The notes below the pieces were generated by a model. That model did no database searches, was not told the origin of the DNA, and saw only the letters and a program-made list of their open reading frames with translations. The position numbers and the translations under genes are program-made. Source: Candidatus Omnitrophota bacterium (lineage in GTDB: Bacteria > Omnitrophota > Gorgyraeia > Zapsychrales > Zapsychraceae). From it: a stretch of DNA of 56,366 nucleotides. The DNA is taken from the NCBI GenBank assembly GCA_029261065.1, contig JAJDCB010000004.1, positions 1 through 56,366 of the forward strand, given 5' to 3'. Numbering within the stretch: the stretch's first letter is position 1; every line of letters begins with the position of its first letter. Positions 1-19,114 of this stretch are shown one piece after another.

Positions 1-1977
1 ACCCGTTTCCGTAATGAGATCAATGTCTGTCCAATTAATGCCAGCCGTTGTTAAAACATTTAAATCTGTCCAATTGACACCAGTATCACTTAAGACATCG
101 ATATCATTCCAATTAACTCCCGCTTCTGTCAGGACTTTAAAATCTTCCCAATTTATTCCTGCATCAGAGAGCACATCAATATCTGTCCAATTAACTCCCG
201 CATCACCAAGAACACGCATGTCATCCCAATTAATACCAGTGTCTGAAAGAACATCTAAATCGTTCCAATTGATGCCAGCTTCTGATAACACTTGAAGGTC
301 ATTCCAATTGACACCTGCATCGGATAACACATTGATGTCACTCCAATTAATTCCCGTTTCACTCAACGAACGTATGTCATTCCAATTCACGCCAGCATCA
401 CTTAAGACATCAATGTCATTCCAGTTGACACCGGCTTCAGTTAAAACTTGGAGATCATTCCAATTCACACCCGCATCACTTAATACATCAATATCATTCC
501 AATTGACGCCTGCTTGAGAAAGGACTGTAAAATCGTTCCAATTGATACCCGCACTACTAAGAACATCTATGTCTGTCCAATTAATACCTGCAGTAGATAA
601 AGAGGTTAAATCCGTCCAGTTAACACCCGCGGCACTTAAAACATCAATTTCAGTCCAATTGATTCCGGCATCGCCAAGGACTTGAAGATCATTCCAATTC
701 ACACCCGCATCACTTAAGACATCAATGTCTCCCCAGTTAATTCCGGACTCTGTCATCACTTTTAAATCTGTCCAATTCACACCCGCCTCAGCTAAAGTAT
801 TAAGGTCTTCCCAGTTAACACCAGCTAAAGATAATTCACCAATGTTTGCCCAATTAACACCAGCAGAACTTAACACATCTACATCAACCCAATTAATGCC
901 TGTCTCACTTAATGCTTTAAGGTCAGACCAATTCACACCCGCATCACTTAAGACATCTATATCAGACCAATTGATTCCGGCATCACTCATCGAACGAATG
1001 TCATCCCAATTTATACCTGTGTCACTGATAACATCTATATCTGACCAATTAATACCAGCTTCACTCAATACTCTAAAATCATCCCAGTTAACACCTGCAT
1101 CAGAAAAAACATCTATGTCTGTCCAGTTAATGCCCGCCGCGGTTAAAACACGTAAATCATCCCAATTAATTCCTGCACCACTTAGGATATCGATGTCTGA
1201 CCAATTGATACCTGCTTGAGTTAAAACACTCATGTCGCTCCAATTAATACCGGCATCACTCCATACATCTATATCAGACCAATTAATTCCTGCCTCACTT
1301 AAAACTTTCCAATCCGTCCAGTTAACACCGATATCACTCATGACCTGAATATCATCCCAATTCACACCCGCATTCGATAAGGTTGCCAAGTTATCCCAAT
1401 TAATCGTTTCAGCCCAATTAATTTTAGCTCCACTCATAACAGCGATGTCCGACCAATTAACACTTGATGTGCTCATAAATTGGATGTCAGCCCAATTAAC
1501 ACCAGCATCACTTAAAACATCAATGTCTGACCAATTAATGCCAGACTCAGACATGACCGTTAGGTTATCCCAATTAACTCCTGCCGAGGCAAGAACATCA
1601 AGGTCATTCCAGTTAATTCCACTTGAAGCAAGAATTCCAACATCTGTCCAGTTAACTCCCGAATCACTTAAGACATCAATGTCATCCCAATTGATACCTT
1701 TATTCGTTAAGCTAAATAAATCATCCCAGTTAACTCCTTTATCAGTTAAGACATCAAGATCCGTCCAATTTATACCTGCCTCACTCAAAGCTCGAATATC
1801 CGTCCAGTTAACACTTGTATCAATGGTGTCCGTTACACTCTTTATACTTGTGACATCCGTTCGAAGAAGATCAACATCGTCCCAATTGATCGTATCCGTA
1901 CTCTGTTTAATAACACCAATGTCATCCCAGTTGATAAGATCTGTCTTGGCTTTTATACCAGTGATATCATCCCAGTT
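1..1977 (-). repeat. Coding tandem repeat, 39 bp/13 aa, consensus G[IV]NWxD[IL]xVL[ST]xA
   Basis: Repeat Trp codons (cca on +) at 31, 70, 109 ... 1804: 47 units at 39-bp spacing except one 18-bp unit (INWAET, 1396-1414). Three more divergent NWDD units have Trp at 1882, 1927 and 1972. Confidence 0.97.
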
Positions 1978-2886
1978 GCTTATAACTCGTCGTCGCGTGT
2001 CAACGATGGTTGGTTTAATAACATCAAGAGAAACAAAGGCATTGTATTCGTTGGCTGTTCCAGATTCTAAGACAGTTATGTCTGCAAAGTACGTATCTTC
2101 AAAATCAGAAGGTGTCCAATTGGTGGAAGAAGTAAAAAGTTCTCGTGTTGTATTGAGTGAAAAATCCGTTGTGGCCAGACTCAATTCCGTTGTCGTTCCG
2201 TCGTTTTGATAAATCACAACAGCAGAAGTGTCACCCGTTTCTAAATCAAACTTATCATCACTTGATGCCACCCACGTTAAAATAGTGTAAGCATCATCGG
2301 ATTCATCCCAAACGGCTAAAATTTTAGGACCCGTACCTGTCTCAACATCAAACGAATTAGAAACAGTTGAAGGAAGACCGGGGGCTGTTGCAACAAGAGT
2401 AAAAAACAAACCAGACTTTGATATTCTTAACCCCTCAAAGCTGGCCACACCATTAGCAGCAACTAGTGTAGTTTCACCCTCTAAATTACCATTGCCAGGA
2501 TTGTTAAAAATATCAAGAGTAATGGGCGTTGTGTTATCAGTTTTTACAAGGTTGCCATAGGAGTCATGAATTTCAATCTCTGGTTGTCTTTCAAAAATCA
2601 AACCATGACGTTCTGAGGAAGGAACTTGTGTGAAAATTAATTTTGCAGCGGCTCCATGCTCAAGAGATTCACTTTGAGAAGAGTCTCCCGTCGTTAATCC
2701 TTCAGAGGACCCACCCGAGAATATATTATCACCAAGCGATGACTCTTCATCTCCTGCAAAACTTCCCCCCGTAAATTGCGCATAGACGACGGCGGGAGTT
2801 TGCGCAAAGACAAACATGAATATCACAAAACAAGAGATTGTTTTGTGAATGACTTGTTGAATTTTAGATTTTTTTCTGTGTTTCAT
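1..2886 (-). CDS. Giant exported repeat protein (3'-truncated by the window edge; at least 962 aa): signal peptide, FxGGSxxG motifs, Ig-like domain, 13-aa NW repeats
   Basis: Not in the ORF track because it has no stop in the window. Manual translation from ATG 2886 (upstream in-frame stop at 2917-2919) is open to base 1: MKHRKKSKIQQVIHKTISCFVIFMFVFAQTPAVVYA|QFTGGSFAG...IFSGGSSEG...AAKLIFTQVP...QPEIEIHDSYGNLV...GVASFEGLRISKSG..FTLVATAPGL...SNSFDV (Ig-like), then NW repeats. Confidence 0.93.
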   Translation of the reverse strand, partial: MKHRKKSKIQQVIHKTISCFVIFMFVFAQTPAVVYAQFTGGSFAGDEESSLGDNIFSGGSSEGLTTGDSSQSESLEHGAAAKLIFTQVPSSERHGLIFERQPEIEIHDSYGNLVKTDNTTPITLDIFNNPGNGNLEGETTLVAANGVASFEGLRISKSGLFFTLVATAPGLPSTVSNSFDVETGTGPKILAVWDESDDAYTILTWVASSDDKFDLETGDTSAVVIYQNDGTTTELSLATTDFSLNTTRELFTSSTNWTPSDFEDTYFADITVLESGTANEYNAFVSLDVIKPTIVDTRRRVISNWDDITGIKAKTDLINWDDIGVIKQSTDTINWDDVDLLRTDVTSIKSVTDTIDTSVNWTDIRALSEAGINWTDLDVLTDKGVNWDDLFSLTNKGINWDDIDVLSDSGVNWTDVGILASSGINWNDLDVLASAGVNWDNLTVMSESGINWSDIDVLSDAGVNWADIQFMSTSSVNWSDIAVMSGAKINWAETINWDNLATLSNAGVNWDDIQVMSDIGVNWTDWKVLSEAGINWSDIDVWSDAGINWSDMSVLTQAGINWSDIDILSGAGINWDDLRVLTAAGINWTDIDVFSDAGVNWDDFRVLSEAGINWSDIDVISDTGINWDDIRSMSDAGINWSDIDVLSDAGVNWSDLKALSETGINWVDVDVLSSAGVNWANIGELSLAGVNWEDLNTLAEAGVNWTDLKVMTESGINWGDIDVLSDAGVNWNDLQVLGDAGINWTEIDVLSAAGVNWTDLTSLSTAGINWTDIDVLSSAGINWNDFTVLSQAGVNWNDIDVLSDAGVNWNDLQVLTEAGVNWNDIDVLSDAGVNWNDIRSLSETGINWSDINVLSDAGVNWNDLQVLSEAGINWNDLDVLSDTGINWDDMRVLGDAGVNWTDIDVLSDAGINWEDFKVLTEAGVNWNDIDVLSDTGVNWTDLNVLTTAGINWTDIDLITETG

Positions 2887-2940
2887 GCAAAACTGTTTGT
2901 GTCGATGATAGGATATTTATCAAAAAATCATTACTGCAAA

Positions 2941-4593
2941 CTATGGTGCCGTTCGGCCCAATCGTCCACCTGCAAAAATTCCTAATGACGAATCATATCT
3001 TTGGTTATATCCGTGACTATCTGGATCTTTAACAGCATACTTTCGCGTGGAGGTTTGAAAGTCTGACATATTAGATGATTGAAAATCACCTCCACGAAAA
3101 CCTGAACCAATTGTGCCTATGACACCACGAGAAGAATCAGTAGTGTCAATACCAGGCCAATCATTGTTGGTTGCGTTTCCTTCAAAACTTGTTAACACAC
3201 TTAACTCCCCATCACCATGGGTTCCTAAAAATTCTCGACCTTCTAAACGGCCAATCGTGACAACCATTTCATTTAAATTTCCGGATAACTCAAGAGCGCC
3301 GTAATAACCGGAGCCACTTGTCACACGGTTAGTTGAACTTTCTGCAAAAACACCAACGCGCAAAGCTCCTGGTTGTCCCTCAGCAATACCACCGACCCGA
3401 CCATCACCCGAACTCCAACCTAAACTGTTTCGATTAATATTGGCACTCCCATCAAAAATTTGCTCTGTTCCAATTTCATCTGTGTCTGGAAAAATTTCAC
3501 CAGCCTCACCTTGGTTGTACGAAGTGGTTCCCCAAACATATTCATTAGCTAATGGCGAAATATCAATACCGCGAGCCGTTTTTTCATATTCCAATTCTGT
3601 TAAAGGCCGTAAGCCCGCCCAGTCAGCATAAGCTAATAAATCAGGCCAAGAAACAAACGACATCGCTCGATCTGGACGCAACGTGGTCGCATCTGACTTT
3701 GGATCATTTACATCCCAACTCACGGTGTTTCGATTAACAACCCCATCAGAATTTTTTCCACCCTGAAAAGAATGGGTAACATCACGCGTCAGCTTCGCGG
3801 CATTAGAAAGCGTATTAAAAAACGCAACCCATTGGCCTTCTGTTAATTCATATTTCATGTGATAAAAGTCACCATAACCCTTAGGAAAGGATGAGGGAAT
3901 TAAGAAAATGGATCCTGTCGAACCTTCACCTGAGGCGCCTGTACTCGTATAATAATATCCATTTGTTGATGTATTTGTCGTCGTGATCGCACCTTCATTT
4001 TGAATATACCAAGGATCATTGTCGCTCGTTCCTTGTTTCAACTTATAATCTGAAGAACTATTTCCGTCTCCCGCATAAAAAGCGCCTTGTGGGACATAAA
4101 TCATTTCGATAGCAAACGCTCGATTAATCGTGTTAGCAGCCATAGCTTGATTGTCTGAAAGTCCATCTTGATTGTAATCCCAAACAAATTGAACATTTTG
4201 TGCTGAAATATTTCCAGTTGCCAAATCTGTTTTTTGCAAGAAAAAACCTTTTTCATCATTTGGAACAATCATTTCAAAACCGACGGGTGGTTGAAAGCCA
4301 GGAGGATTAGTTCCATTACTAGCCATACTGGCATGATGCCAGGTAACACCTGCATCTGTGGAATATTTAAGAAACACCCAAACAGCATCGTAATTATTGG
4401 TATCTCTCCAAGAATTTTCCCAAGTCAAATCACCTTGAAAAGTAATGGTATTAACAGCTTCATTCGTATCAACCACTTCAAAATTATCTATAGTTAGGTT
4501 ATTAGCCACAGCACCTTGAGCAGCAAACAAAACAATAAGTGCTACCAAACAATTCGTGATAAACTTTCTCAATTTTAAATTCTTTTTGGTCAT
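2941..4593 (-). CDS. Exported SUMF1/FGE-sulfatase-fold (C-type-lectin-fold) protein, paralog 1
   Basis: Signal peptide ending AVA|NNLTIDN; motifs WENSWR..NYDAVWVF, EMIYVPQGAF, MKYELTEGQWVAF, SWPDLLAYADWAGLRPLTELEYEK, ELSGNLNE, RGG, GGRLGR. Start moved from 4644 to ATG 4593 (GGAG upstream, 4 nt after the previous stop). Confidence 0.88.
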   Translation of the reverse strand: MTKKNLKLRKFITNCLVALIVLFAAQGAVANNLTIDNFEVVDTNEAVNTITFQGDLTWENSWRDTNNYDAVWVFLKYSTDAGVTWHHASMASNGTNPPGFQPPVGFEMIVPNDEKGFFLQKTDLATGNISAQNVQFVWDYNQDGLSDNQAMAANTINRAFAIEMIYVPQGAFYAGDGNSSSDYKLKQGTSDNDPWYIQNEGAITTTNTSTNGYYYTSTGASGEGSTGSIFLIPSSFPKGYGDFYHMKYELTEGQWVAFFNTLSNAAKLTRDVTHSFQGGKNSDGVVNRNTVSWDVNDPKSDATTLRPDRAMSFVSWPDLLAYADWAGLRPLTELEYEKTARGIDISPLANEYVWGTTSYNQGEAGEIFPDTDEIGTEQIFDGSANINRNSLGWSSGDGRVGGIAEGQPGALRVGVFAESSTNRVTSGSGYYGALELSGNLNEMVVTIGRLEGREFLGTHGDGELSVLTSFEGNATNNDWPGIDTTDSSRGVIGTIGSGFRGGDFQSSNMSDFQTSTRKYAVKDPDSHGYNQRYDSSLGIFAGGRLGRTAP

Positions 4594-4597
4594 AATG

Positions 4598-6187
4598 TTA
4601 TAAACTCCCATCATACGTTCTTGCCCCACGTCCGCCCACATCACTAAAAGATGATGCTTGGCCGTTTGCGGCTTGGCTACGATCAGAAATTCTTAAAGCT
4701 GTGCTCGCATCAATAAAAGAACCGCCTCTGAGACCAGACCCTATAGCCGATGTCACGCCACGGCTTGTAACAGCATCAATCCCTGGCCAATCTAATTCAT
4801 TGGCATTGCCTTCAAATCCGCTCGCTGAACTTAAAACACCATCGCCGTGCGTTCCAGCAAACCCGCGACCAGTTGCATTACCAATTGTTACAAGCTGCTC
4901 CATTAAATTCCCAGAAAGTTCCATAACACCGTAATATCCTGCACCCGCTAAAACACGTGTAGAATTTTCTTGAGCAAAAATTCCAGATCTCAACGGACCA
5001 AGACTATAATCAGCTCCACTACTACTGTCTCCACCTGTAAAAGAAATATTGTTATAATTCGCATTTGCATTTGCTGTTAAAATCGTTTCTGTTCCCGTTT
5101 CATCGGCTCCAGAGATTGAAGTGGCCGCGGTAATGGCTATATCTCCCCAAGCAAACTCTCCTTCTGTCGGTACCAAAGGACCACGACTAATTTTTTCAAA
5201 TTCTAACTCTGTCAACGGCCTTAAAGCGGCCCAATCAAGAAAGGCAGCTAGATCCATCCAACTTAAAAAACCAACAGCTCTTGAAGGGCGATCGGTAGAA
5301 CAAGCTAAAGAAGCCCCGCTACAATTAAGAGTGTTTCTTGATTGAACTGTATCCGTTGACTTATGACCTGAGTTTGTTAAATCGCGATTTGATCTTGCAT
5401 TATTAGAAGCTAAGGCATTAAAAAAATCACTCCATTGCCCTTCTGTAATTTCATATTTCATAACATAAAAGTCTCCATACCCTTTCGGATAACTAGCCGA
5501 AATAGAAAAGGAAGAACCTGTAGGATCCTCTGTTGCATTGCCAGCTGAAGAATATAAATAACCATCGTTAGTCGCATTAGAAACACTAATCGAAGAATCG
5601 CTTGAGATGTACCAAGGATCCGTATCGGCATTTCCTTCCATTAAAGAAGCGCTACTCGTTCCATAATCTCCAACATAAAACTCACCCTCAGGGATATAAA
5701 CCATCTCTAGAGCAAAAACGTTTAATTTAACCTCACTCTCATCAGTAAATCCGCAACTAGCGTAATCAATTTTGAATTGAACTTCATTTGAAGCAAGTGA
5801 TTCAACAACACCAAAATTTTTAGGTCTGATAAATGCACCTTTTTTGTCACTTGGCACATAAATATCAATATTTGTTGAATCCCCAGCAGTAAAACCTGCA
5901 GGATTGAGGCCAACACCTGAAAGTTCACAGATATTTTTACTTATCGGAGTTACTGCTGGGTCATATAAACGAACCGTCACCCACACAGCATCATGATTAC
6001 TTTTCGTTTTCCAAGAATTTTCCCAGGAAACATCAAATTGAACCATGACAGTATCGTTAGACGGGTTTCTTTCTTCGAGTGATACATTATCGATTGACAA
6101 ATTGTTGGCAAATAGGGCAGGAACAGAAATAAAAGCTATACTGAGGATTGTCAGGAAGGAAAGGGTTATTTTAAAAACCTTTGTCAT
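4598..6187 (-). CDS. Exported SUMF1/FGE-sulfatase-fold protein, paralog 2
   Basis: Signal peptide ending LFA|NNLSIDN; same motifs (WENSWK..NHDAVWV, MKYEITEGQW, WAALRPLTELEFEK, MELSGNLME, RGGSF, GGRGAR); RBS GAGGTG before the ATG. Confidence 0.88.
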   Translation of the reverse strand: MTKVFKITLSFLTILSIAFISVPALFANNLSIDNVSLEERNPSNDTVMVQFDVSWENSWKTKSNHDAVWVTVRLYDPAVTPISKNICELSGVGLNPAGFTAGDSTNIDIYVPSDKKGAFIRPKNFGVVESLASNEVQFKIDYASCGFTDESEVKLNVFALEMVYIPEGEFYVGDYGTSSASLMEGNADTDPWYISSDSSISVSNATNDGYLYSSAGNATEDPTGSSFSISASYPKGYGDFYVMKYEITEGQWSDFFNALASNNARSNRDLTNSGHKSTDTVQSRNTLNCSGASLACSTDRPSRAVGFLSWMDLAAFLDWAALRPLTELEFEKISRGPLVPTEGEFAWGDIAITAATSISGADETGTETILTANANANYNNISFTGGDSSSGADYSLGPLRSGIFAQENSTRVLAGAGYYGVMELSGNLMEQLVTIGNATGRGFAGTHGDGVLSSASGFEGNANELDWPGIDAVTSRGVTSAIGSGLRGGSFIDASTALRISDRSQAANGQASSFSDVGGRGARTYDGSL

Positions 6188-6376
6188 ATCACCTCTTTAT
6201 TTTTATCTCACTGTCTTTTATATATACTTATATATTATATATAAAGAGACATAGAGTACCCCGCGAGATAAATGATTAATTTACTACAAACTATTAGGAT
6301 ACTTAAAGTTATGCCAACCGATACTGCTTTATGTTATGACGCGCGCTTCGTCAAAAAGCCTACTTTATACTACCTT

Positions 6377-7174
6377 TTACCTCTCTAACGGTGAATCCAC
6401 TAATCCACGAATGAATAATTCTGCTTTTACGATTTTTTCTTTTACAAAATCAGAATCTTTCGCTGTTGGATTCAAATACAAATACATCTTGTAATGCTTT
6501 AATGCTGTTTTCTGATCATTTAACTGCTCCCCACTAACAAAAGCCAAATTAAAATGGGAATCTGGATCATCTGGCATTAAAGTAACAGCTTGATAATATT
6601 CTCGAACAGCAATTTCATATTCACCTTTTTGGAAATAGATATTTCCCATATTGTAATGAGCTTTGGCCGCATCTTCTCTTAGTCTCTCATCACCTTCAGT
6701 AAAAGCATCAATGCGTGATAACAAATCTGTTGTTTCATTTTCACGCCCCTTTACTTCCTCAGTGCTTTTTGATTTATTTGCTGCCAATAAAAACACACCA
6801 TCTGTTATTGACTTAGAATCTTGATTAGATTTTTGAATACTATTTCTCGTCGCTGTTTTACTTTTTAAAGAAGCTAATTGCATCGTATCATGAACAACTG
6901 GCATCTCGTTTTTTGTAACTTTCGCGTTCATTCTTAATTTACTAATTTGAGTTTCTAACCTTTGATTTTTCGTGGCCAAACTATGATTTTGTTCGATAAC
7001 ATTTTTTAGCGTTTCACTCATTGCTGCAACTTGCTTTTCTTTGATGGTTAGATCGGCACTTGCAAATGTTGCGCTAAGAACAAACATTACTGTCAGTGAA
7101 AGAGTTAAAGCTGTGAGACTTTTTTTCATCTTTCTTTGATTTTCATATTTTGTGGCCATAATTTTTATCCTCAC
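6377..7174 (-). CDS. Exported coiled-coil + TPR protein
   Basis: Signal peptide (ASA|D); coiled coil; TPR units AKAHYNMGNIYFQKGEYEIAVREYYQAVTLMP and DSHFNLA...ALKHYKMYLYLNP. The true start may be a downstream Met. Confidence 0.85.
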   Translation of the reverse strand: MRIKIMATKYENQRKMKKSLTALTLSLTVMFVLSATFASADLTIKEKQVAAMSETLKNVIEQNHSLATKNQRLETQISKLRMNAKVTKNEMPVVHDTMQLASLKSKTATRNSIQKSNQDSKSITDGVFLLAANKSKSTEEVKGRENETTDLLSRIDAFTEGDERLREDAAKAHYNMGNIYFQKGEYEIAVREYYQAVTLMPDDPDSHFNLAFVSGEQLNDQKTALKHYKMYLYLNPTAKDSDFVKEKIVKAELFIRGLVDSPLER

Positions 7175-7197
7175 TTGATTAAATTTATCTTCTATTT

Positions 7198-8802
7198 TTA
7201 GTCTGTACTATATGACTTAAACGGCTTAATTGTGCCTTGAACTTTCATGTAATCATCTTTACCCGTAACAATCCTAGGTGTAATAAATATGACAATTTCT
7301 GTTTTAGCAAAATCATCATTTGTTCGACCAAACATAGGGCCAAAAAGTGGAAGATCCATAAGCACAGGAAAACCTTTCTTTGTGTGAACCTTATCATTCT
7401 TCTTTAAACCACCCATAATAATTGTGTGAGCATCTTTAACAAGAACTGTCGTTTCAACTTCAGTTTTATTGACTTGAGGAATTCCGCCCCCTTGAGAGGA
7501 AACCTCTCCAACAACAGATGAGATTTCTGGTCTTAATCGCATTGTGACGTAACCATCATCATTAATGGTCGGTGTCACGTTTAGTTTTAAACCAACGTCC
7601 ACAAACCGAACATCTTCACTAGTAATGGCATTATCACCTGTTCCGGAAGTCGTTGAGATAATATAGGGAACAGTATCACCGACATGAATCTTTGCTTCTT
7701 CATTATTGGTAATTAAGACCGTTGGATTCGATAAGATTTTTGTATCACTAACCTGCTCTAATGATCGAACCGTTGTCTCAAAAGCATCTTCACTAAAATC
7801 ACCTACAGCAAATTGACCATAATGACTAGCCAGTTCGTCACTAGCAGAAATTTTAGCGTTTTGGCTACCCAGATAGAAGTTTGAAAAACTTAATTTTTTT
7901 ATTTGACTATTGCTGCTGTCCCTAAAATCAAGTTGCCAGTCAATACCGACATCATATTTTGGTTTCATTACGATTTGTAAAATACGGGCGCTTATTAATA
8001 CTTCTTTTGTAGGAGAATCTAATTTAGCTAATATTTTCTCGATTTCCTTTTTGCGATCTGGAAATACACGAACAATGAGCTTATTGGAACGCTCATCAGC
8101 CATAATTGATCCAACACTCTTAGCATCAATTCGCGATCTTAGCTTATCTGCCACAACATCAGCACTAGCATACTGCAATGTGTAAACAATTGTCTCAAGC
8201 GGCTTCTCTATTTCTTTAATAGCAGCCTTCATAAGTGCAATCCCCTCAGCAGTATCAATCATAACAACAGATCCCGTGTCTTCATCTATAATAATCTTAC
8301 CGACATTGCTTTTAATACTGTCCAAAGCAGCCAAAACATAACTTGGTTTGGAATATTTAAGATGAATAATCTCAACCATTGTTTTATCACTAAAACTTTT
8401 TCCAAACATCGCTTCATACTCTTGCTCGGTCAAAACTTGTACAATATTACCCTGAACTTTGTAGGCCAAACGATTGGAGATAATGACAATATCTAGAACA
8501 TCTTTGACCGATACGTTTTCTAAGAAAACAGTAGCACGCCCTTCGACACTTGGACTTATAACGACATTAAATTCACCCTCGTCAGCAAGGAACTTAATTA
8601 TGTCGACAATATTCATATCCCGTATTTCAAGCCTTATCTTTCGTTTCATTCTTTCAGAAAGAGCGCCTTTGACATCGGAAATCTTAATGGGCTTCCCATC
8701 AGCAAACAAATCTGTTGCTTGACCTATCATGCCCGCAAAAGCACAGGTAAAGACAACCAAAGGAATACACCATTTTAAAGATTTATTATTTTGAGTTATC
8801 AT
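7198..8802 (-). CDS. Type II secretion / type IV pilus secretin (GspD/PilQ family)
   Basis: N-domains (ADERSNKLIV, LDSPTKEVLISARILQ) and secretin domain (ILSNPTVLITNNEEAKIHVGD, DVGLKLNVTPTIN, PVLMDLPLFGPMF, TEIVIFITPRIV). Confidence 0.95.
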   Translation of the reverse strand: MITQNNKSLKWCIPLVVFTCAFAGMIGQATDLFADGKPIKISDVKGALSERMKRKIRLEIRDMNIVDIIKFLADEGEFNVVISPSVEGRATVFLENVSVKDVLDIVIISNRLAYKVQGNIVQVLTEQEYEAMFGKSFSDKTMVEIIHLKYSKPSYVLAALDSIKSNVGKIIIDEDTGSVVMIDTAEGIALMKAAIKEIEKPLETIVYTLQYASADVVADKLRSRIDAKSVGSIMADERSNKLIVRVFPDRKKEIEKILAKLDSPTKEVLISARILQIVMKPKYDVGIDWQLDFRDSSNSQIKKLSFSNFYLGSQNAKISASDELASHYGQFAVGDFSEDAFETTVRSLEQVSDTKILSNPTVLITNNEEAKIHVGDTVPYIISTTSGTGDNAITSEDVRFVDVGLKLNVTPTINDDGYVTMRLRPEISSVVGEVSSQGGGIPQVNKTEVETTVLVKDAHTIIMGGLKKNDKVHTKKGFPVLMDLPLFGPMFGRTNDDFAKTEIVIFITPRIVTGKDDYMKVQGTIKPFKSYSTD

Positions 8803-9412
8803 AGCGTATTATTATCTCCTCATCTTCATAGCCTAGTTTGATACTATCGGCATAAATGGTTTTTACAAGTATATCGCCCAATTTGTCTCCAACTTTCTTA
8901 AAATGGGTTTCACTTTTCACGGTATCCTCAATCATCGCCGCAGCACTTTCAACACGGTCAAACCAAGATATACCGACAAGCTTTAAGTGTTGGGTTTTCT
9001 CAACGATCCGCCTATTCTCATCAGAAACATCAACATCTGCTCTTAAATTTTGTTCTTCGGTAAATGGGTAAAAAATGTTGCGGGCTGAAAACTTCATTCT
9101 GTAGAGTGGCAATGGTCTCTTGTCTGGTTCAAAATTATCGTTCTTATTTCCGCTAACCGGCCCACCTAATTTTGTGGCAATGTTTACAGGTTTCCCCATC
9201 TTCTTTTTACCTTTCACAAATTCATTAACAGCAAATCCCGCACCCGCAACAATCAAAAGTAACAATACTAAATTAAGAACTTTTATCAAGCCAATAACAT
9301 CAACAGATTTTTTTGGCTTCTTTTCTTCAGCTTTATTTTGCACAGCACCACTTGCTTCTAACATCTTTAAAAGCTTTTGGTCTGCCGTTTCTTTTTTTGC
9401 TTTAGCTGTCAT
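8786..9412 (-). CDS. Bitopic GspC/PilP-like secretion accessory protein
   Basis: One TM segment, RNIFYPF, then LKLVGISW...AAAMIED...KVGD.LG.ILVKTI.ADSIKL (HR-domain-like). Overlaps the secretin start. Confidence 0.7.
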   Translation of the reverse strand: MTAKAKKETADQKLLKMLEASGAVQNKAEEKKPKKSVDVIGLIKVLNLVLLLLIVAGAGFAVNEFVKGKKKMGKPVNIATKLGGPVSGNKNDNFEPDKRPLPLYRMKFSARNIFYPFTEEQNLRADVDVSDENRRIVEKTQHLKLVGISWFDRVESAAAMIEDTVKSETHFKKVGDKLGDILVKTIYADSIKLGYEDEEIIIRYDNSK

Positions 9413-9466
9413 ATATTAACAATCTTATCTTATTGAAGTCTAACTTCAAGATAAAATTCACTTTTT

Positions 9467-10366
9467 TTATACTTGATTAATAACTTCAACACCCTCATTT
9501 TTCTCCGCCGAGAAAAACTGTTTTTCTTTTTCAATGACATCCCTAACAAACGTGTTATCAACAATTTTCTGATCTTCCATAACTAATTCTTTCATAATTT
9601 TATGACACAACATGGTAATTTTTCTTGGGTAACCTTTTGTGTAATTATAGACCTCACTAATCGCATCATCTAAAAAAATCTTAGCACCACCTTTGTATCC
9701 CGCTTTATTAATTCGAAAATTTATTAGCTCTTTAGTTTCATTGACATCCAAAGGATTTAATGTGAATTTAAAACTTATGCGATCTAAAAAATTACTCATA
9801 TGCACAATTTTGGAATAAAGTTCAAGCTGACCTAACAAAACAAGTTGGATTAATTTATGCTCATTCGTTTCGAAATTTAACAAAATACGTAATGATTCCA
9901 AAGTGGCCAAATCCAACTTTTGAGCCTCATCCACAATCAAAACTATAGTGCGATTCTCCTTAAGCGTTTTTTGAATCAAAAACGTCTCAATCACATCTCT
10001 AAGCTCCAATAAATCACAATTTTTCACATCTAGATTATCAGGCAAATCAATATCCATGTTTTTCACAAGTGACAGTAAGAATTGATCTTGTGTACTAAAA
10101 GAAGGATCAAGAATCATATGAAAGATGATATCTCCGCGTTTATTAAGCTCATGTAGAAGTTTTCTAGAAAGCGTGGTTTTTCCCGTTCCAACATCGCCTA
10201 AAATGACGGATAAGCCCCTTCTTAGGCGTAATTCTATCAATAAGTTCGTTAAAGCGAGATCATGTTCGCGGGTATGATAAAAAAATTCGGGATTAGGACT
10301 GGTAGAAAAAGGCTCCCTTTGGAAACCAAGAATGGAATAATAACCTAATGTATTATCTGCGGGCAT
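9467..10366 (-). CDS. ExeA/GspA-family AAA ATPase
   Basis: GFQREPFSTSPNPEFFY, Walker A GDVGTGKT, Walker B LIVDEAQ, QLVLLGQLEL, GYPRKI. No C-terminal peptidoglycan-binding domain. Confidence 0.92.
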   Translation of the reverse strand: MPADNTLGYYSILGFQREPFSTSPNPEFFYHTREHDLALTNLLIELRLRRGLSVILGDVGTGKTTLSRKLLHELNKRGDIIFHMILDPSFSTQDQFLLSLVKNMDIDLPDNLDVKNCDLLELRDVIETFLIQKTLKENRTIVLIVDEAQKLDLATLESLRILLNFETNEHKLIQLVLLGQLELYSKIVHMSNFLDRISFKFTLNPLDVNETKELINFRINKAGYKGGAKIFLDDAISEVYNYTKGYPRKITMLCHKIMKELVMEDQKIVDNTFVRDVIEKEKQFFSAEKNEGVEVINQV

Positions 10367-10443: not shown

Positions 10444-11436
10444 TTATTTGGCTTTTTTTAATAGGTTTTTAGCAAAAACATTTATAATCCCCGTCGAGAA
10501 ACCAAATGTTCTTGCAAAAGCTCTCATAAACATAACAAAACCATAAAAAAAAAGTTTTCTTTTCTTTTTTTGCATGATCCAGCTGTAGTAAAGCTCTATC
10601 ATTAATAAACACAAAGAGATTGATGCGCCGCCGATAAAACCTAAAGAAGAATTTACAAAGATGCCATAAATAATACTCATGCAAATCAACAAAGAAAACG
10701 GAACCTCTAACATATCCTTCCAAAATGTGTACTGATCCCCACCAACCATGTTTGGATGCGTTTTATAAAGCCAAGCTCGCCAAAATCCATGTCGAAATTG
10801 CTCCTGAAGATACTTTTTAACACTAGAAGGGTGGTTATGACGCACAATAGCATCTAAGCAAAAATACATTTCATACCCCTTTTTAGTGATTTTATAACTT
10901 AGATCATTATCTTCTCCACTGGCATGGAGATAGGACTCATCAAAACCACCAACCTGCTTAAAAATGGACTTACGCATCCCCACGTTATAACTACCAAAAA
11001 CAACCGTTTTTTCACCCATCAAATACTGATGACGATAAATTATCTCCTGATGTACGCATAAGGCCAATGTGCTTTCTGGATTAGCAATACCATAGCTGCC
11101 CGCCACGACATCTGCTTTTTTATGATTAAAATAAATCATCGCATTTTTAATCCAGTCTTGATCGGCAAAGCAATCGGAGTCCGTAAAAAAAATAACATCT
11201 CCCTTGGCCATTGCAGCCCCTTTATTCCGAGCCTTGGCTGGACCAGCATTAGTTTGATGAAAATATCTCACTTGGTTATATCGTTTTATTAGCTCAGCAG
11301 ATTTATCGCTAGAACCATCATCAACAACAATAACCTCGATAGGTTGATAACTTTGTTGAAAAACACAATCAAGCACTTGGCTTATCGTTTGTTCACAATT
11401 GTAAGCAGGAATAATTATACTGACGAGAGAAGACAT
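10444..11436 (-). CDS. Glycosyltransferase family 2 with C-terminal TM helices
   Basis: VSIIIPAYN, VVDDGSSD, NAGPAKARN, FTDSD, GEDNDL. Start adjusted to ATG 11436 to avoid overlap. Confidence 0.92.
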   Translation of the reverse strand: MSSLVSIIIPAYNCEQTISQVLDCVFQQSYQPIEVIVVDDGSSDKSAELIKRYNQVRYFHQTNAGPAKARNKGAAMAKGDVIFFTDSDCFADQDWIKNAMIYFNHKKADVVAGSYGIANPESTLALCVHQEIIYRHQYLMGEKTVVFGSYNVGMRKSIFKQVGGFDESYLHASGEDNDLSYKITKKGYEMYFCLDAIVRHNHPSSVKKYLQEQFRHGFWRAWLYKTHPNMVGGDQYTFWKDMLEVPFSLLICMSIIYGIFVNSSLGFIGGASISLCLLMIELYYSWIMQKKKRKLFFYGFVMFMRAFARTFGFSTGIINVFAKNLLKKAK

Positions 11437-11440
11437 GGAT

Positions 11441-12106
11441 TTAAGGTTTTCGGGCCACTGTGAATAACAGCATTCCAAATAGACGTCCTACCCATTTATC
11501 TGGAGAGAAGGCAAAAGGAAACGTATTAAGACCTCCTTGATTAACAACAAACGCCCCATTTCTTTGATTTAAATCAAGCAGTTGTTTAAATACAAAAGGC
11601 GTTTCTTCAATGCCTGGCATATACAAAGGACGAATGATTTCCCACGGAGAAAATCGATTAGGCACAACTGTAACAATGACACCATCTGTTGTTAGAAGAC
11701 TAAACAAATTTGTAAAAATAACATCTTGCTCTGCTGCTGTAAAATGTTCAAATAATCCGTCTGTAAAAATAATATCAAAACGATTATCAATATCTCCCGC
11801 CAAATTCGCTCTTAAAAGATCTTTTTGTAATAATGTCGTTTGACCCTGTGTCATGGTTCGCGCTATGTCTAATGCTTCTTGTGAATAGTCTAAAGATGAG
11901 GTTTTCATCCCGCTATCACAAAAGTATTTTGAAAAAAATCCACTCCCACATCCCGCATCTAATGCACACCCACCGGGCTTTACATATTCTTGCAAGACCG
12001 ACATAATTCTTTTTTTAGACCAACTGATCTTTGTAAATTTCTTTGTTTGATCTAAACTCCAAAAATGATTCCAATCTTGCGATTGAGGCATTGCTGTTTT
12101 ATTCAT
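11441..12106 (-). CDS. Class I SAM-dependent methyltransferase
   Basis: ALDAGCGSG motif I; FDIIFTDGLFEHF. Confidence 0.9.
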   Translation of the reverse strand: MNKTAMPQSQDWNHFWSLDQTKKFTKISWSKKRIMSVLQEYVKPGGCALDAGCGSGFFSKYFCDSGMKTSSLDYSQEALDIARTMTQGQTTLLQKDLLRANLAGDIDNRFDIIFTDGLFEHFTAAEQDVIFTNLFSLLTTDGVIVTVVPNRFSPWEIIRPLYMPGIEETPFVFKQLLDLNQRNGAFVVNQGGLNTFPFAFSPDKWVGRLFGMLLFTVARKP

Positions 12107-12465
12107 TAACTATTACCCTTATCTTCTTTTTTTAATTTTTCAATCTCGTATTCTAACACACCAATTTTTTGTGCCACCGAATCATTACGATTGTTTTGTT
12201 GGCATAAAAATATCGTCATTAATAAACTTAAAAATACAAACACTGCTAACAAAACAAAGAAAATAAAATTACTCGCTAATTCAAAACCAAAAAAATCAGC
12301 CAAAGAAAATAACAACTGATCAAAGATCGAAAATACAATAGATAATAACGAAACAAACAGCCAACCAGCTGCATATTTAAATGTCAATTTTTCTTTTCGA
12401 ATCAATTCAATAATTAACAAAAAGATAATTGAGGAAAGAAAAATCGCAAGATACTTAATATTCAT
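12106..12465 (-). CDS. DUF2304-family small membrane protein (GacJ/Rv3632-like partner of a polyprenyl-phosphate sugar synthase)
   Basis: Three TM segments, IELIRKEKL..KYA..W pattern, C-terminal coiled coil (SVAQKIGVLE); directly follows a DPM1-like GT2. Confidence 0.85.
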   Translation of the reverse strand: MNIKYLAIFLSSIIFLLIIELIRKEKLTFKYAAGWLFVSLLSIVFSIFDQLLFSLADFFGFELASNFIFFVLLAVFVFLSLLMTIFLCQQNNRNDSVAQKIGVLEYEIEKLKKEDKGNS

Positions 12466-12473
12466 AAATCGCT

Positions 12474-13235
12474 TTAAATTTCTTTAGCTTTAAGTTTATC
12501 CAATAAAATGGCAACCGTAACCTTTATCATGTAATAAAGTGTTTTTAGATATCGTATAGAGCTGTGTCCTGCGACACGCTTGCGCATCGTAACAGGAACC
12601 TCGATTATTTTCGCATTATATCGTCGGGCAACAACAATGGCCTCAGGCTCAGGAAAGTCTTGTGGATAATAGCGAGCAAATACATCAATACACTTTCGAT
12701 CAAAGGCCCTAAAGCCCGAAGTTGGATCAGATATTTTACATCCCGTTAAAAAACTAATGAGGCGTGCAAAAAAATTAATACCAATACGCCTTACAAAAGC
12801 AGAACGATAACTAAGAAATGGTGGAATAAAACGACTACCTATTGTCATATTCATACCATTATTAAAAATGGGTTCTAAAATATTTGCTAAAAACTTTACA
12901 TCATGTTGTCCATCGGCATCAACTTGAACAGCAATGTCAAAATTGTTATCGCGCGCAAACTGAAAGCCTGTTTGAACAGCACCACCTATTCCTAAATTAA
13001 AAGGTAAAGAAACAACATCAACACCCATCGCTTTTGCTTCTTGAGCAGTCTTATCCTTAGAACCATCATTGATCACTAAAATTTGAAGAGGGTACGATAA
13101 TGAAAGTATATCTTGGATTGTTGAGCGAATACTTCCCTCTTCGTTGTAAGCTGGAATTATAATTAATGTTTTATGCGTTAATAACTGATGAGAAATCGAT
13201 TCTGCAGATATATTTGGATTAAGTGTATGAGACAT
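12474..13235 (-). CDS. DPM1-like GT2 (polyprenyl-phosphate sugar synthase-like)
   Basis: IIIPAYNEE, INDGSKD, NLGIGGAVQTG, VDADGQHD, IGSRF, DPTSGFRA, R..GHSSI. Confidence 0.92.
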   Translation of the reverse strand: MSHTLNPNISAESISHQLLTHKTLIIIPAYNEEGSIRSTIQDILSLSYPLQILVINDGSKDKTAQEAKAMGVDVVSLPFNLGIGGAVQTGFQFARDNNFDIAVQVDADGQHDVKFLANILEPIFNNGMNMTIGSRFIPPFLSYRSAFVRRIGINFFARLISFLTGCKISDPTSGFRAFDRKCIDVFARYYPQDFPEPEAIVVARRYNAKIIEVPVTMRKRVAGHSSIRYLKTLYYMIKVTVAILLDKLKAKEI

Positions 13236-13262
13236 GCGTTTAATAAAAAAACATTTTTACCG

Positions 13263-14608
13263 TTACTTAGTATTATCTTGCATTTTTAAAACGTCTTTAG
13301 TATCAAGATTCATTTCTTTAAGATTAATATAAACGAGATATTTAGCGGCATACGTAACAATATCAGATTCTTCTTCCTTTTCAAAACGCTTATCTGGAAT
13401 TAAGCCCTCAAAACTAAACACGCTGCCATCAGGATGATGCCCTCTAGCGGTAATTAATAATACATAGATTCATCATCAAAGTGAAACATACTTTTAAGCA
13501 TTACTTGGCCGGCCGAATTTTGCCCCATTAAGACAGCCCTCCTCCTTCTTTGCAAAACACCAGAGAACAATTCTGAAGCACTTCCGCTCTTTTCATTGAC
13601 TAATATCACCATAGGACCATCATAATGAAAATTATCAGGGATTGTAGGCACATCTAAATTCGCTTTTGGTTGGCCTTTCTTTTGAAAGTATGCAAAATCT
13701 TCTCCGGGGGGAAGAAAAAACGATGAAATTTCACGCGCAGCAAGCGGTGGACCACCAGGATTGTTCCTTAAATCCAAGATCAAGCCCTTAAAATGCTCTT
13801 TTGTCTTAAAAAACTTGATAAAACGAAACAAATCTTCCGCCGTCTTTCGATTAAAACGTCTTATCTCTAAACAATAGATACCTTGGAAATTAACATCAAC
13901 CATAAACACAGTTTGTTTAAAATATTCTTTGGTTGTTACATCTATTTTTTTTAAAACATCACTCAACACAGTTAAATACTGCAACTTTACAAAAGAGTTT
14001 TCCAAAGGAGTCAATAACTCCGCTATCTCCTCTTGCGATAATGTTTGAACATCTTTATCATCAATCTGTAAAAGGATGTCACCTTTTCTTAATCCCTTAC
14101 CATAAGCATCCGAACGAGGCTCAACCTGTGTCGTTTCATATCCTTCTTCTGTTAAACTCCCATCTATGCCTAAATCCATTCTTTTACCTAAAGAGGTTTG
14201 TTCGTATTCTTTTGCAGGTTCTGGAGGATAAAAGGCTGAGAACACATCTTCCGATGTTTTTAACGTGTCAATCATTTTAGCAGCTGAACGCCACCGAATA
14301 TAATCACTAGATTTATTTTGATTTTTAAGTTGTGGATAAATTTTTGTATTAAATTGATGAATAAAACGATCAAATTTCTCAGGAAGAACATCCTTGTAGT
14401 AATTTTTAGTAACTACGTCATACACTTCTTTAAAAAAATCAACATACTCTTGATAGACATCCCATTCTTGTTGCATACTCGCATCTTTCTCGTCCTTATT
14501 ATTAGCTGTATCACTATATGAAACATTCGCACAACATAAAAAAACCATAGACATACAAATCGCTAAACAAAATCGGTCTTTCAATCTATAAAGGGATATA
14601 TTTTTCAT
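13263..14608 (-). pseudogene. S41 (CtpA-like) carboxy-terminal protease with PDZ domain, interrupted by a one-base frameshift at about 13463
   Basis: ILDLRNNPGG, ILVNEKSGSASE. The ORF stops at 13454 (DESMYY*), but the adjacent frame from 13463 continues VLLITARGHHPDGSVFSFEGLIPD..., matching the S41 C-terminal motif, to TAA at 13263. Pseudogene or sequencing error. ATG 14608 is preferred because GTG 14629 lies inside a terminator stem. Confidence 0.85.
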
Positions 14609-14617
14609 TGATAAAAT

Positions 14618-14653
14618 AAAAAACCTCACGCACTTTTATACGTGAGGTTTTTT
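14618..14653. terminator. Intrinsic terminator (potentially bidirectional) downstream of the EF-hand gene
   Basis: Perfect 13-bp inverted repeat aaaaaacctcacg / cgtgaggtttttt with a 10-nt loop and A/T tracts on both sides. Confidence 0.8.
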
Positions 14654-14686: not shown

Positions 14687-15151
14687 TTATTTAAATTGCT
14701 TTTTTATTCCAGGAATTTCTGCGCGACTAATTAAACCATCTTCATCATTATCAAACTTTTTTAATAATTCAGAACGCGCGGAGAACTCACCTCTTCTTTC
14801 AACAGAAGATACAACATCTTTTAAAAACTCAGATACTTCATCTCGTTGTAACGAACCATCTTGATTCACATCATAAATACGTTCAATACGGCTTGATACT
14901 TTAGGATTAGCATCTAATACATTGATGGTTTGTTTCGTCTTTTTTTCAACCTTTGCCGTACGACCATATCTTGCCTTTTTTTCTTTACGCTGAACTTTTT
15001 TAACTTTCACTGGAGCCGGAGCAGTTTTTTCTTGAGCAGGAGTAACGGCTTCTTTGCTGCGACGATTATAATTGATGAGCTGAGCATCGGCTAAGGATGT
15101 TAAAAATATGACACCTAAAACAAACGATAATAAAAAAATTGTTTTTCTCAT
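14687..15151 (-). CDS. Exported EF-hand calcium-binding protein
   Basis: Signal peptide (ADA|Q), basic linker, two EF loops DVNQDGSLQRDE and DNDEDGLISRAE; RBS GGAGGG. Confidence 0.85.
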   Translation of the reverse strand: MRKTIFLLSFVLGVIFLTSLADAQLINYNRRSKEAVTPAQEKTAPAPVKVKKVQRKEKKARYGRTAKVEKKTKQTINVLDANPKVSSRIERIYDVNQDGSLQRDEVSEFLKDVVSSVERRGEFSARSELLKKFDNDEDGLISRAEIPGIKKQFK

Positions 15152-15247
15152 CTAACACCCTCCTTAAAAATATTTTTAATAATTTTTTACGCTCTCAGCG
15201 CTCTTTGCAAAACTATAAATGATACTCTTTCTAATTGAATTCGCTTT

Positions 15248-15275
15248 ATTATATTACAACTTCATATCGTGTCAA
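15248..15275 (-). promoter_or_regulatory. Sigma70-type promoter for the EF-hand gene
   Basis: TTGACA-N16-TATAAT on the minus strand. Confidence 0.7.
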
Positions 15276-15294
15276 TCACCCATTAGCATTAGAT

Positions 15295-16014: not shown

Positions 16015-16056
16015 CGCTTTTTTTCAAGACTTAAAGGTTAGGTATTTGGGCACACA

Positions 16057-17514: not shown

Positions 17515-17529
17515 AGATTTTAATGTATT

Positions 17530-17553
17530 GATTCCCGATGCCTCGGGAATGAC
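17530..17553 (-). repeat. REP/RS3-like palindrome (GTCATTCCCGAGGCATCGGGAATC)
   Basis: ATTCCC-N8-GGGAAT hairpin with GTC head; near-identical copy at 36901-36924. Confidence 0.8.
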
Positions 17554-17612
17554 AGAATGGTAAGAAGCTTATACCAAACCATTATTAAATCAACGGGATA
17601 TTACACCAACCT

Positions 17613-17694
17613 GGAATTTCGTTAAAGCTTCGAAATTCCTAGCATTTCGTTAAAGCTTCGAAATTCCTAGCATTTCGTTAAAGCTTCGAAATTC
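17613..17694. repeat. Three tandem 28-bp units, each with an internal hairpin
   Basis: atttcgttaaagcttcgaaattcctagc starting at 17616, 17644 and 17672 (last copy partial); ATTTCG/CGAAAT inverted arms; no spacers. Confidence 0.93.
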
Positions 17695-19056: not shown

Positions 19057-19114
19057 TATCCTTACAGGTGGTTTTAAATATAAAGGGAATTAAGTTTTCG
19101 AAAAGAATTATTTT

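Follow-up and report, generated by a model that had tools for sequence, protein, structure and literature searches.

Omnitrophota are widespread, uncultured and ultrasmall bacteria that are thought to be predators or parasites. Here we report on a 56,366-nucleotide stretch of DNA from a Candidatus Omnitrophota bacterium (JAJDCB010000004.1, positions 1 to 56,366), hereafter the window, which forms the first 56,366 bases of contig C24 in a genome (G000) of 2.7 Mb and 36 contigs. Its first 10,366 positions carry seven genes, encoding a secretin module, two secreted proteins with the fold of formylglycine-generating enzyme (FGE) and the beginning of a giant protein built from short repeats. We show that these genes are the outer-membrane end of one conserved unit of about 27 genes and about 50 kb, which continues on a second contig of the same genome, C26. 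An earlier sequence-only reading of the window had proposed a system of seven genes; it is much larger, and includes an F1-like ATPase, a putative inner-membrane anchor protein and Gsp genes on C26.

The seven open reading frames (ORFs), as given by the ORF list and translations, lie head to tail on the minus strand. In the direction of transcription they encode an ExeA/GspA/MshM-like AAA+ ATPase of 299 aa (9467..10366; Pfam AAA_22, E = 1.5e-21), a bitopic protein of 208 aa placed by position and topology (8786..9412), a 534-aa secretin (7198..8802; Pfam Secretin, E = 3.1e-48, and Secretin_N, 5.2e-21), a secreted TPR protein (6377..7174; Pfam TPR_11, 1.6e-13), FGE-like 2 (4598..6187; Pfam PF03781, E = 1.1e-08), FGE-like 1 (2941..4644, with the likely true start at 4593; Pfam PF03781, E = 2.1e-11) and the N-terminal 962 aa of the giant (1..2886), whose frame is open at the contig start. 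The sequence-only reading had listed these genes in this order and orientation, with Sec signals on the last three and gaps of 4 and 54 nt between them. ORFs and Pfam matches place the genes as it described, the gaps of 4 and 54 nt hold provided that the start of FGE-like 1 is its MTKK methionine, and the signals are seen by eye as hydrophobic N-termini followed by A-x-A-like sites. Overall, the observation made in that reading is confirmed and its interpretation is partly supported.

The giant protein begins with a signal peptide, one or two copies of a [YF]xGG motif and two beta-sandwich (Ig-like) domains at about residues 80-290. Repeats of 13 residues with the unit G-[IV]-N-W-x-D-h-x-V-[LM]-[ST]-x-x start about 300 residues past the signal peptide. 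The part of the protein within the window holds 51 Asn-Trp (NW) dipeptides and is very regular, 45 of the 50 spacings being exactly 13 residues; the repeat DNA has periods of 39 and 78 nt with a match of 62-74%. A tblastn search of the genome with this fragment matched C26 alone, over its first 510 bases (plus strand). There the contig opens in frame with 13 more NW repeats; a tail of 250 residues without repeats comes next and ends at a stop at 1257. We take C26:1-1257 (plus strand) as the C-terminal continuation of the giant on the basis of the tblastn match and the in-frame repeat. The ends of C24 and C26 share no exact overlap, and part of the gene is therefore missing between them.

The join of C24 and C26 is supported by two other genomes, G129 and G062, because they show the same order around unbroken giant genes. 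From the ExeA or GspC-like gene to the second TPR gene their order matches that of C24 followed by C26, and it has persisted between classes whose proteins are only 30-60% identical. The unbroken giant of G129 has 8,087 aa and 579 NW dipeptides, with 573 of 578 spacings equal to 13 residues, and that of G062 has 7,170 aa and 511 NW dipeptides. Both proteins consist almost wholly of the one 13-residue repeat, and contain 0-3 Cys and 8-11 Pro.

Past the tail of the giant, C26 encodes on its plus strand unk443, a 443-aa protein of no known family, and then an ATPase operon (C26:2637-8519) in the order alpha, epsilon, three c-like genes, b/delta, gamma and beta, with the a subunit absent. The operon comprises an F1 alpha-like gene (C26:2637-4178), epsilon (PF02823, 2.3e-12), three c-subunit-like hairpins of 72, 72 and 77 aa (two at 19-23 bits to PF00137, whose cut-off is 24, and a third without Pfam match), a b/delta fusion with an OSCP domain, gamma, and an F1 beta-like gene (C26:6948-8519). 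Still on the plus strand, GspE with MshEN and C-terminal PilZ domains (C26:8764-11007; T2SSE 9.2e-128, MshEN 1.1e-15) is followed by GspF (T2SSF 7.8e-59), an MA-family peptidase, GspG (T2SSG 1.9e-30), two N-methyl minor pseudopilins, GspK (T2SSK_1st 2.1e-16), a PilM-PilN fusion (PilM_2 and PilN) in the position of GspL, a GspM-like protein of 191 aa (T2SSM_b, E = 0.089, below cut-off) and a second TPR protein. By Pfam, GspE, GspF, GspG and GspK occur together in one locus, on C26. The sequence-only reading had noted the assembly ATPase, platform protein and pseudopilins as missing; they do lie outside the window, and they are present on the adjoining contig past the giant gene. The MshEN and PilZ domains of GspE point to possible control by cyclic di-GMP.

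We asked how widely this arrangement is conserved by searching 201 Omnitrophota species genomes with FGE-like 1 at E <= 1e-20. The family is present in 58 of the 201, the window's own genome included, and for many of the matches a contig end is no more than a few kb away. We compared 60 loci of up to 20 kb each, which came from 56 of the 57 other positive genomes, and annotated their ORFs by BLASTP against the window proteins; G167 was left out of the comparison and not examined, its match being a fragment at a contig start (1/57), and in G060, G141 and G033 one of several FGE-like matches was examined. The recurrent linkage of FGE-like, NW giant and secretin genes on which the sequence-only reading had staked itself was found. 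In 29/57 genomes the secretin module, the FGE-like gene or genes and the NW giant stand in a row, and in a further 7/57 the secretin or TPR gene and the FGE-like gene are present before the contig ends; contigs under 5.2 kb were uninformative in 3/57. Three of the 29 full loci come from the same order as the window's genome, five from the same class and 21 from other classes.

The anchor proposed for the giant rests on unk443, which has a signal peptide, two repeated periplasmic domains, a C-terminal transmembrane (TM) helix and an acidic tail. Full-length unk443 (E <= 1.5e-39) was found in 42 other genomes, 34 of which also have the FGE-like family, and in at least 41 of the 42 an alpha-like gene (50-67% identity) lies within about 1 kb downstream on the same strand; in G156 the listed alpha match is on a different contig from unk443. 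Matches to half of unk443 lie inside open frames of 2,000-12,861 aa, beside alpha genes of a second clade (42-49% identity). In all six loci taken from genomes without the FGE-like family (L179-L184), a giant ORF ends in an unk443-like domain, the motif HIGxYRxN, one TM helix and a short tail, and directly after it come the epsilon, c-like, b/delta, alpha, gamma, beta, GspE and GspF genes (6/6). The bodies of these fused giants are not NW repeats. To judge from sequence, unk443 is probably a detached form of the inner-membrane anchor that other Omnitrophota giants carry covalently, because it has the same C-terminal TM helix and the tail of the NW giant has none. A PDB sequence search with unk443 gave no match at E < 0.2, and a search of the ESM Atlas returned only Omnitrophota clusters.

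The F1-like genes are not those of the cell's ATP synthase, because the canonical F1Fo operon and the genome's only match to an a subunit (PF00119) are on C17, where alpha and beta are 40% identical to the C26 proteins. C19 carries a V-type ATPase set. The number of c-like genes varies between loci, with three in our genome, two in G129 and one in G062.

The secretin has two Secretin_N domains and a weak STN domain, and its NCBIfam scores all fall below cut-off: PilQ 257 bits (284), GspD 246 (351) and MshL 175 (250). It belongs to one of seven secretin-like loci in the genome, which also has about nine GspE-like genes. In the 208-aa bitopic protein a Lys-rich N-terminus precedes a single TM helix and a periplasmic domain; other genomes have homologues of 29-45% identity in the same place, flanked by the ExeA and secretin genes. 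Pfam gives nothing for it at E <= 0.01, with T2SSC at E = 0.07 over residues 138-193, below cut-off; the label GspC/PilP-like, which the sequence-only reading had given it, suits its position and topology and is based on these because no significant family stands behind it. The ExeA-like protein lacks a peptidoglycan-binding domain and reaches 184 bits to NCBIfam TIGR03015, whose cut-off is 324. The TPR protein matches PilW, Tgl and GltE in NCBIfam far below their cut-offs; it sits where secretin-assembly factors of the MshN/PilW/Tgl type do, and the full loci keep it between their secretin and FGE-like genes. Generic AAA_22 and TPR domains are the basis for calling the two proteins MshM-like and MshN-like. 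A compact paralogous cluster of GspE, GspF, GspG ... ExeA-like and secretin genes at C16:29268-39695, 35-54% identical to the window and C26 proteins, has no giant, FGE-like or ATPase genes.

In FGE-like 1 the signal peptide is followed by an N-terminal beta-sandwich (about residues 50-190) and then by a domain of FGE/C-type-lectin-like fold that contains a large insert; FGE-like 2 is a secreted paralogue with 42.5% identity (tblastn). Both signals are of the signal peptidase I (SPase-I) type, ending in A-x-A|NN by eye, with no lipobox Cys. An AlphaFold2 (AF2) model of FGE-like 1 from a 50-sequence alignment had a predicted local distance difference test score (pLDDT) of 89.6 and a predicted template modelling score (pTM) of 0.88. 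With this model, the best Foldseek matches in the PDB were FGEs (E = 7.4e-07), then ToxD, OvsA, CalU17, EgtB and PvdO, and a PDB profile search found human and bacterial FGE at about 2e-10 with only the first half of the fold aligned. The FGE fold is thus present, by PF03781 in both proteins and by the profile-search and Foldseek matches. A search for homologues of FGE-like 1 gave 1,686 matches; identity was 59-70% among the 120 listed, and the named ones among those listed were Omnitrophota.

The FGE-like proteins look non-enzymatic. The sole Cys of FGE-like 1, residue 15, is inside the signal peptide, leaving the mature protein without Cys, and in the 50-sequence family alignment Cys occupies no invariant or >=90% conserved column; the copper-binding catalytic cysteine pair of FGE is found neither in the mature protein nor in the family alignment. 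Substrate sites of the sulfatase type (C/S-x-P-x-R) number 0 in the two complete giants, and the locus holds no sulfatase gene. The Cys-free mature protein, the lack of a family Cys and the absence of [CS]xPxR from the giants therefore argue against FGE chemistry, in line with the non-enzymatic use of the fold that the sequence-only reading had considered. At E <= 0.001, NCBIfam (a library that holds GldJ/K models) returned for the two proteins only SenA at 5e-4, and because of this we do not regard them as recognisable GldJ or GldK. That reading had also treated twin FGE-like genes as part of the system. Twins occur, with a second or further copy in 9 of the 29 full loci (two copies in 8, four in 1), and are not general, 20 loci being single-copy.

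The motif at the mature N-terminus, described from the window as NNLxIDN...WENSW, is kept across phyla as NNLxIxN...SWENSWR. A scan with the family alignment, one genome per prokaryote species, gave 80 loci, several of whose contigs were already in the Omnitrophota census. The secretin adjoins the FGE-like gene in 25 of these and an NW giant follows it in 24; the loci with secretin or NW giant carry the titles Omnitrophota/Omnitrophica, "uncultured Planctomycetales/Planctomycetia/bacterium" and, once, Elusimicrobia. About 43 further loci, from Bacteroidota, Ignavibacteria, Verrucomicrobiota, Kiritimatiellia, Calditrichia and others, match over the full length at 33-39% identity and have the mature N-terminus NN[IL]xVxN...SWENSWR, with neither secretin nor NW giant in any. 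In these non-Omnitrophota loci the next gene encodes a small secreted protein of [YF]xGGxGDG[FY] repeats (L129-L178, e.g. L173:6001-8322 and L134:5944-8280), for which Pfam and NCBIfam hold no model. Four of the five such partner proteins tested end in a sorting domain of the type IX secretion system (T9SS), and are therefore cell-surface proteins.

NW giants carry a related motif right after the signal peptide, in one or two copies, e.g. AQ[YF][TS]GGS[YF].G. With one regular expression fixed beforehand, we found the motif in the first 120 residues of 45/66 ORFs directly downstream of an FGE-like gene. Among the remaining ORFs of these loci, with shadow ORFs counted, it occurred in 12/1,063. 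Omnitrophota, Bacteroidota, Ignavibacteria and Verrucomicrobiota were among the sources of the loci, and several of the 21 downstream ORFs without a match nevertheless have the sequence AQ[YF]xGG. The link between phyla is best read as one of motif, not of homology between the partner proteins, and it suggests that the FGE-like protein may act on an N-terminal motif of a surface protein.

Some records met in these comparisons call for care. On the 1.29-Mb contig L144 the secretin, FGE-like and giant genes are split into short frames in a manner that looks like long-read frameshift errors, not decay. Several metagenome-assembled genome (MAG) records with a complete Omnitrophota-type locus (L100, L102, L104-L107, L109, L110, L112, L114, L122, L124) are titled "uncultured Planctomycetales/Planctomycetia bacterium" or Elusimicrobia, and such taxon labels may be unreliable.

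The only Pfam match of the whole giant fragment is Ntox33 (bacterial toxin 33) at E = 3.6e-17, an identity we reject as a summed repeat artefact, no single stretch passing, and one that could mislead automatic annotation; NCBIfam matches to the giant were far below cut-off. Antisense ORFs of 164-254 aa at 725-1219 (+) and 1445-2209 (+) in the window and at C26:3-494 (-) are "SQLTPA"-type shadows of the repeat, not genes. A PDB sequence search with 500 aa of repeats gave no match at E < 0.2. A search for longer homologous proteins with residues 30-330 returned mostly unrelated large proteins with common Ig-like domains; it took lengths of 1,685-4,810 aa, so that full-length NW giants fell outside it.

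On C24 the cluster is bordered upstream by genes for a GT2 glycosyltransferase, a methyltransferase, DUF2304, a second GT2 and an S41 peptidase (10444..14629, minus strand, Pfam), and on C26 by an STT3/PglB-type oligosaccharyltransferase (C26:19465-21984) on the minus strand, opposite to the cluster. The GT2/methyltransferase/DUF2304/GT2/S41 block flanks the cluster in G129, G091 and G169 and stands at its other end, beside an STT3 homologue, in G062; the STT3, two GT2, DUF2304 and S41 genes (in G000 at C26:19465-21984 and window 10444-13235) accompany the cluster in G000, G129 and G062, at differing ends. The sequence N-W-S/T, a possible N-glycosylation sequon, makes up 22/51 of the NW sites in the window part of the giant, 117/579 in G129 and 265/511 in G062. 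Farther upstream, window positions 14687-19501 hold genes for an EF-hand protein, lipoate-protein ligase and the glycine-cleavage P1/P2/H proteins, which are ordinary and without link to the cluster. In a scan for promoters and terminators, sites were no commoner than in shuffled sequence.

Based on these observations, we propose that the roughly 50-kb supercluster builds and handles one giant fibre protein. The giant would be exported by Sec, and its C-terminal part would be held at the inner membrane by unk443, the module that in related clusters is fused to the giant's C-terminus. A pseudopilus machine like that of the type II secretion system (T2SS) would pass the repeat rod, N-terminus first, through the cluster's secretin, giving a long surface fibre of some 0.1-0.5 micrometre. 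The FGE-like proteins would be non-catalytic partners of lectin fold that recognise [YF]xGG at the mature N-terminus of the fibre and serve as tip, cap or adaptor, and the F1-like ATPase would use ATP to exert force on the anchored fibre or to drive its export. With such a fibre the cell would most likely attach to host or prey cells or move on them; as a further guess, NW[ST] sites might be N-glycosylated. We give this five-step model as a whole a probability of about one half; passage of the giant through the secretin, and its binding by FGE-like proteins, are steps that we infer.

A number of points weigh against this model. T2SS substrates are normally folded globular proteins, and both the giant's exit from the periplasm and its use of this secretin are inferred. 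RNA or protein data for the organism were not found, the listing of sequencing runs showing DNA runs only, from one biofilm-metagenome study that may be the source. All three c-like ORFs score below the Pfam cut-off, the loci of G129 and G169 lack ExeA but are complete in other respects, and 8 of the 42 genomes with full-length unk443 have no FGE-like match. In the census, 2/57 genomes (G054, G020) have FGE-like and giant genes with no secretin within about 9 kb upstream, and 15/57 show other contexts, mostly for matches of 27-43% identity. The [YF]xGG match across phyla is a short motif: with hhalign, a Bacteroidota partner and the giant's N-terminus aligned over the 15-column motif only, at a probability of 1.7% that is not significant alone, and the motif claim rests on the enrichment count for that reason. 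Complex predictions for FGE-like 1 (47-567) with the giant's N-terminus (30-185), made without controls, scored 0.39, 0.07 and 0.00, their median below the mark, and speak neither for nor against binding.

The shape and length of the fibre belong with these points. An AF2 model of the giant's first 700 residues had a mean pLDDT of 51 and is usable at residues 80-290 only. In the repeats it draws one short helix per 13 residues at a pLDDT of 35-50 and cannot discriminate an alpha- from a beta-solenoid; the conserved Asn and Trp and a 26-residue super-period would also suit a beta-solenoid. With a repeat model this poor, we can only guess at the shape and length of the rod. By our estimate, some 7,500 residues of repeat would span roughly 0.14-0.55 micrometre depending on the fold, which is comparable to the size of the cells, reported as about 0.2 micrometre (PMC10066038).

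Other explanations of the locus can be weighed on the same evidence. We consider it rather unlikely that the genes are neighbours for regulation only, with the FGE-like gene and the NW giant forming an independent adhesin cassette whose giant reaches the surface otherwise or stays envelope-bound. FGE-like and motif-protein pairs do exist without a secretin in other phyla, where T9SS exports the partner; G054 and G020 have FGE-like and giant genes with no secretin nearby; and besides this secretin the genome holds six secretin-like loci, along with many paralogues of GspE. Set against this is the order of secretin module, FGE-like, giant, unk443, ATPase and GspE/F/G genes, which is kept between classes at 30-60% identity, together with the giants of other kinds to which the unk443 module is fused in the corresponding place, beside the same ATPase and Gsp genes. 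The cluster on C16, with its GspE-F-G and ExeA-secretin genes, shows the machine as it is without these inserts.

It seems unlikely, too, that the FGE-like proteins are enzymes with a different active site, modifying the giant in the periplasm at [YF]xGG or at repeat residues. Such a role would agree with a fold family that is mostly enzymatic (FGE, EgtB, OvsA, PvdO, ToxD and CalU17 in Foldseek), with the 59-70% identity among the 120 listed homologues and the many invariant columns, His, Glu and Arg among them, and with the strict pairing with a downstream gene that bears the motif. The missing cysteines and [CS]xPxR sites described above speak against it, as does the lack of an EgtB-like DinB iron domain (Pfam finds only PF03781, over residues 259-379), and most of the invariant residues belong to structural motifs of the fold.

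Least convincing, and in our judgement very unlikely, is a periplasmic or envelope scaffold tethered by unk443, in which the F1-like proteins form an export or unfolding ATPase in the style of FliI/FliJ/FliH while an ordinary pilus is what the secretin and pseudopilins serve. In its favour, FliI, FliJ and FliH have their homologues in F1 alpha/beta, gamma and b/delta, the unk443 module would be an inner-membrane anchor, and no a subunit couples the c-like proteins to ion flow. Against it, the giant has an ordinary Sec-type signal peptide by eye, its N-terminal Ig-like domains resemble those of large surface proteins (Big/invasin-type Pfam families in the matches), the FGE-like partner family pairs with T9SS surface proteins elsewhere, and it is difficult to fit a rod that exceeds 7,000 residues into the periplasm of a cell of about 0.2 micrometre (PMC10066038).

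The fibre model that we prefer may be extended, tentatively and with more doubt than belief, to a general envelope machine of Omnitrophota. Here a single giant of 3,000 to >12,000 aa would be anchored in the inner membrane by an unk443-type module, driven by an F1-like rotary motor powered by ATP, with a c-like ring, epsilon and b/delta and no a subunit, and threaded across the outer membrane by a T2SS-like secretin/pseudopilus apparatus, forming a "pilus" of one molecule for grabbing or moving on prey. The NW/FGE-like version would be one cassette of this machine, and the FGE-fold proteins a lectin-like family of several phyla that caps [YF]xGG(x)GDG surface proteins.

Giant ORFs and spare F-type ATPase/pilus loci, reported apart until now, can be understood as parts of one conserved locus with parts that can be named: a secretin module, a lectin-fold partner, a rod of 13-residue repeats and an inner-membrane anchor. 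An F1-like ATPase with c-like but no a subunits, wired to a secretion machine, would if confirmed be a new use of a rotary ATPase. Short-read assemblies, moreover, break predictably at the giant gene, and this accounts for many of the contig ends seen in Omnitrophota MAGs. Cultured Bacteroidota (Kordia, Algibacter, Winogradskyella, Neolewinella and Jiulongibacter) also have the pair of FGE-like and [YF]xGG genes, and binding or modification can therefore be tested without culturing Omnitrophota.

Among known systems, the T2SS and the mannose-sensitive haemagglutinin (MSHA) pilus share with this locus a secretin, GspE with MshEN, GspF, GspG, GspK, a GspL-like PilM-PilN and, by generic domains, an ExeA/MshM-like ATPase and an MshN-like TPR protein. 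The locus differs from them in its secretin, which falls below the GspD, PilQ and MshL NCBIfam cut-offs, and in its weakly recognisable GspC and GspM, and from the T2SS in the roughly 30 kb of giant, FGE-like and ATPase genes that separate the secretin from GspE. We know of no characterised T2SS with an 800-kDa single-chain cargo or an F1-like ATPase.

Gliding and T9SS in Bacteroidota involve the FGE-fold lipoproteins GldJ and GldK/PorK, the giant repetitive adhesin SprB and a rotary motor. As there, our locus would unite in one context a rotary motor, a giant surface protein of repetitive sequence and paralogous envelope proteins whose FGE fold is not catalytic. Unlike GldJ, GldK and PorK, its FGE-like proteins have SPase-I signals instead of lipoboxes, and their neighbours are secretin and giant genes, with no gldLMN; the motor here would be ATP-driven and F1-like, whereas GldLM is proton-driven. 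The gliding machinery of Mycoplasma mobile combines an internal F1-like ATPase with the giant membrane-anchored surface proteins Gli349 and Gli521. It resembles our locus in having an F1-like ATPase that does not make ATP together with membrane-anchored surface proteins of several hundred kDa, and differs from it in that the Omnitrophota locus belongs to a diderm envelope with secretin and pseudopilins and has c-like, epsilon and b/delta genes.

Within Omnitrophota, Seymour et al. 2023 (PMC10066038) describe in their text non-respiratory type-2/3 F-type ATPase genes beside type-4a pilus clusters in every class, within 10 kb of each other in 57/66 contigs; they propose a role in attachment to and motility on host cells, cite the Mycoplasma ATPase link, and treat giant ORFs of >20 kb as a separate trait. 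As in those loci, C26 carries an additional F1 alpha/beta set that is non-respiratory and lies no more than 10 kb from type IV filament genes. The article's text on these loci mentions neither the NW giant nor FGE-like, unk443 or c-like/epsilon genes, nor the missing a subunit; its supplementary tables may list some of these genes. The sequence-only reading's claim of an undescribed system is accordingly true in part: F-type ATPase/type IVa pilus loci had been described (Seymour 2023), and in that text the NW giant, FGE-like genes and unk443 had not been tied to them. The locus is a member of a class that is genomically described and uncharacterised.

The giants of West-Roberts et al. 2023 (10.1101/2023.11.21.568195) are, according to the preprint's text, >30,000 aa in Omnitrophota, with many TM regions and SecA or dockerin domains, and are preceded by a T2SS-like locus with rcpC/PPIase and followed by pilZ genes. 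Those loci resemble ours in setting a giant gene beside gspD/E/F-like genes and in their proposed role in prey contact; unlike those giants, the complete NW homologues have 7,170 and 8,087 aa, consist nearly wholly of one repeat and lie in a different locus. In a 2026 preprint on complete Omnitrophota genomes (10.64898/2026.06.07.730766), alpha and beta are common and gamma is rarely called in the text, which fits divergent F1-like sets; that text mentions neither FGE ("formylglycine" 0 times) nor the NW repeat. The texts of all three sources contain neither "secretin" nor the FGE terms searched in each, and their supplements may overlap with our findings; in the text of West-Roberts 2023 formylglycine, sulfatase and ATP synthase occur 0 times, as does sulfatase in that of Seymour 2023. 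A literature search on Omnitrophota/Omnitrophica with formylglycine, SUMF1 or sulfatase-modifying gave nothing relevant among the best 15 of 216 results. What appears to be new here is the NW-repeat fibre, the FGE-like partner family with its motif, the unk443 module held in common with other giants, and the subunit make-up of the ATPase.

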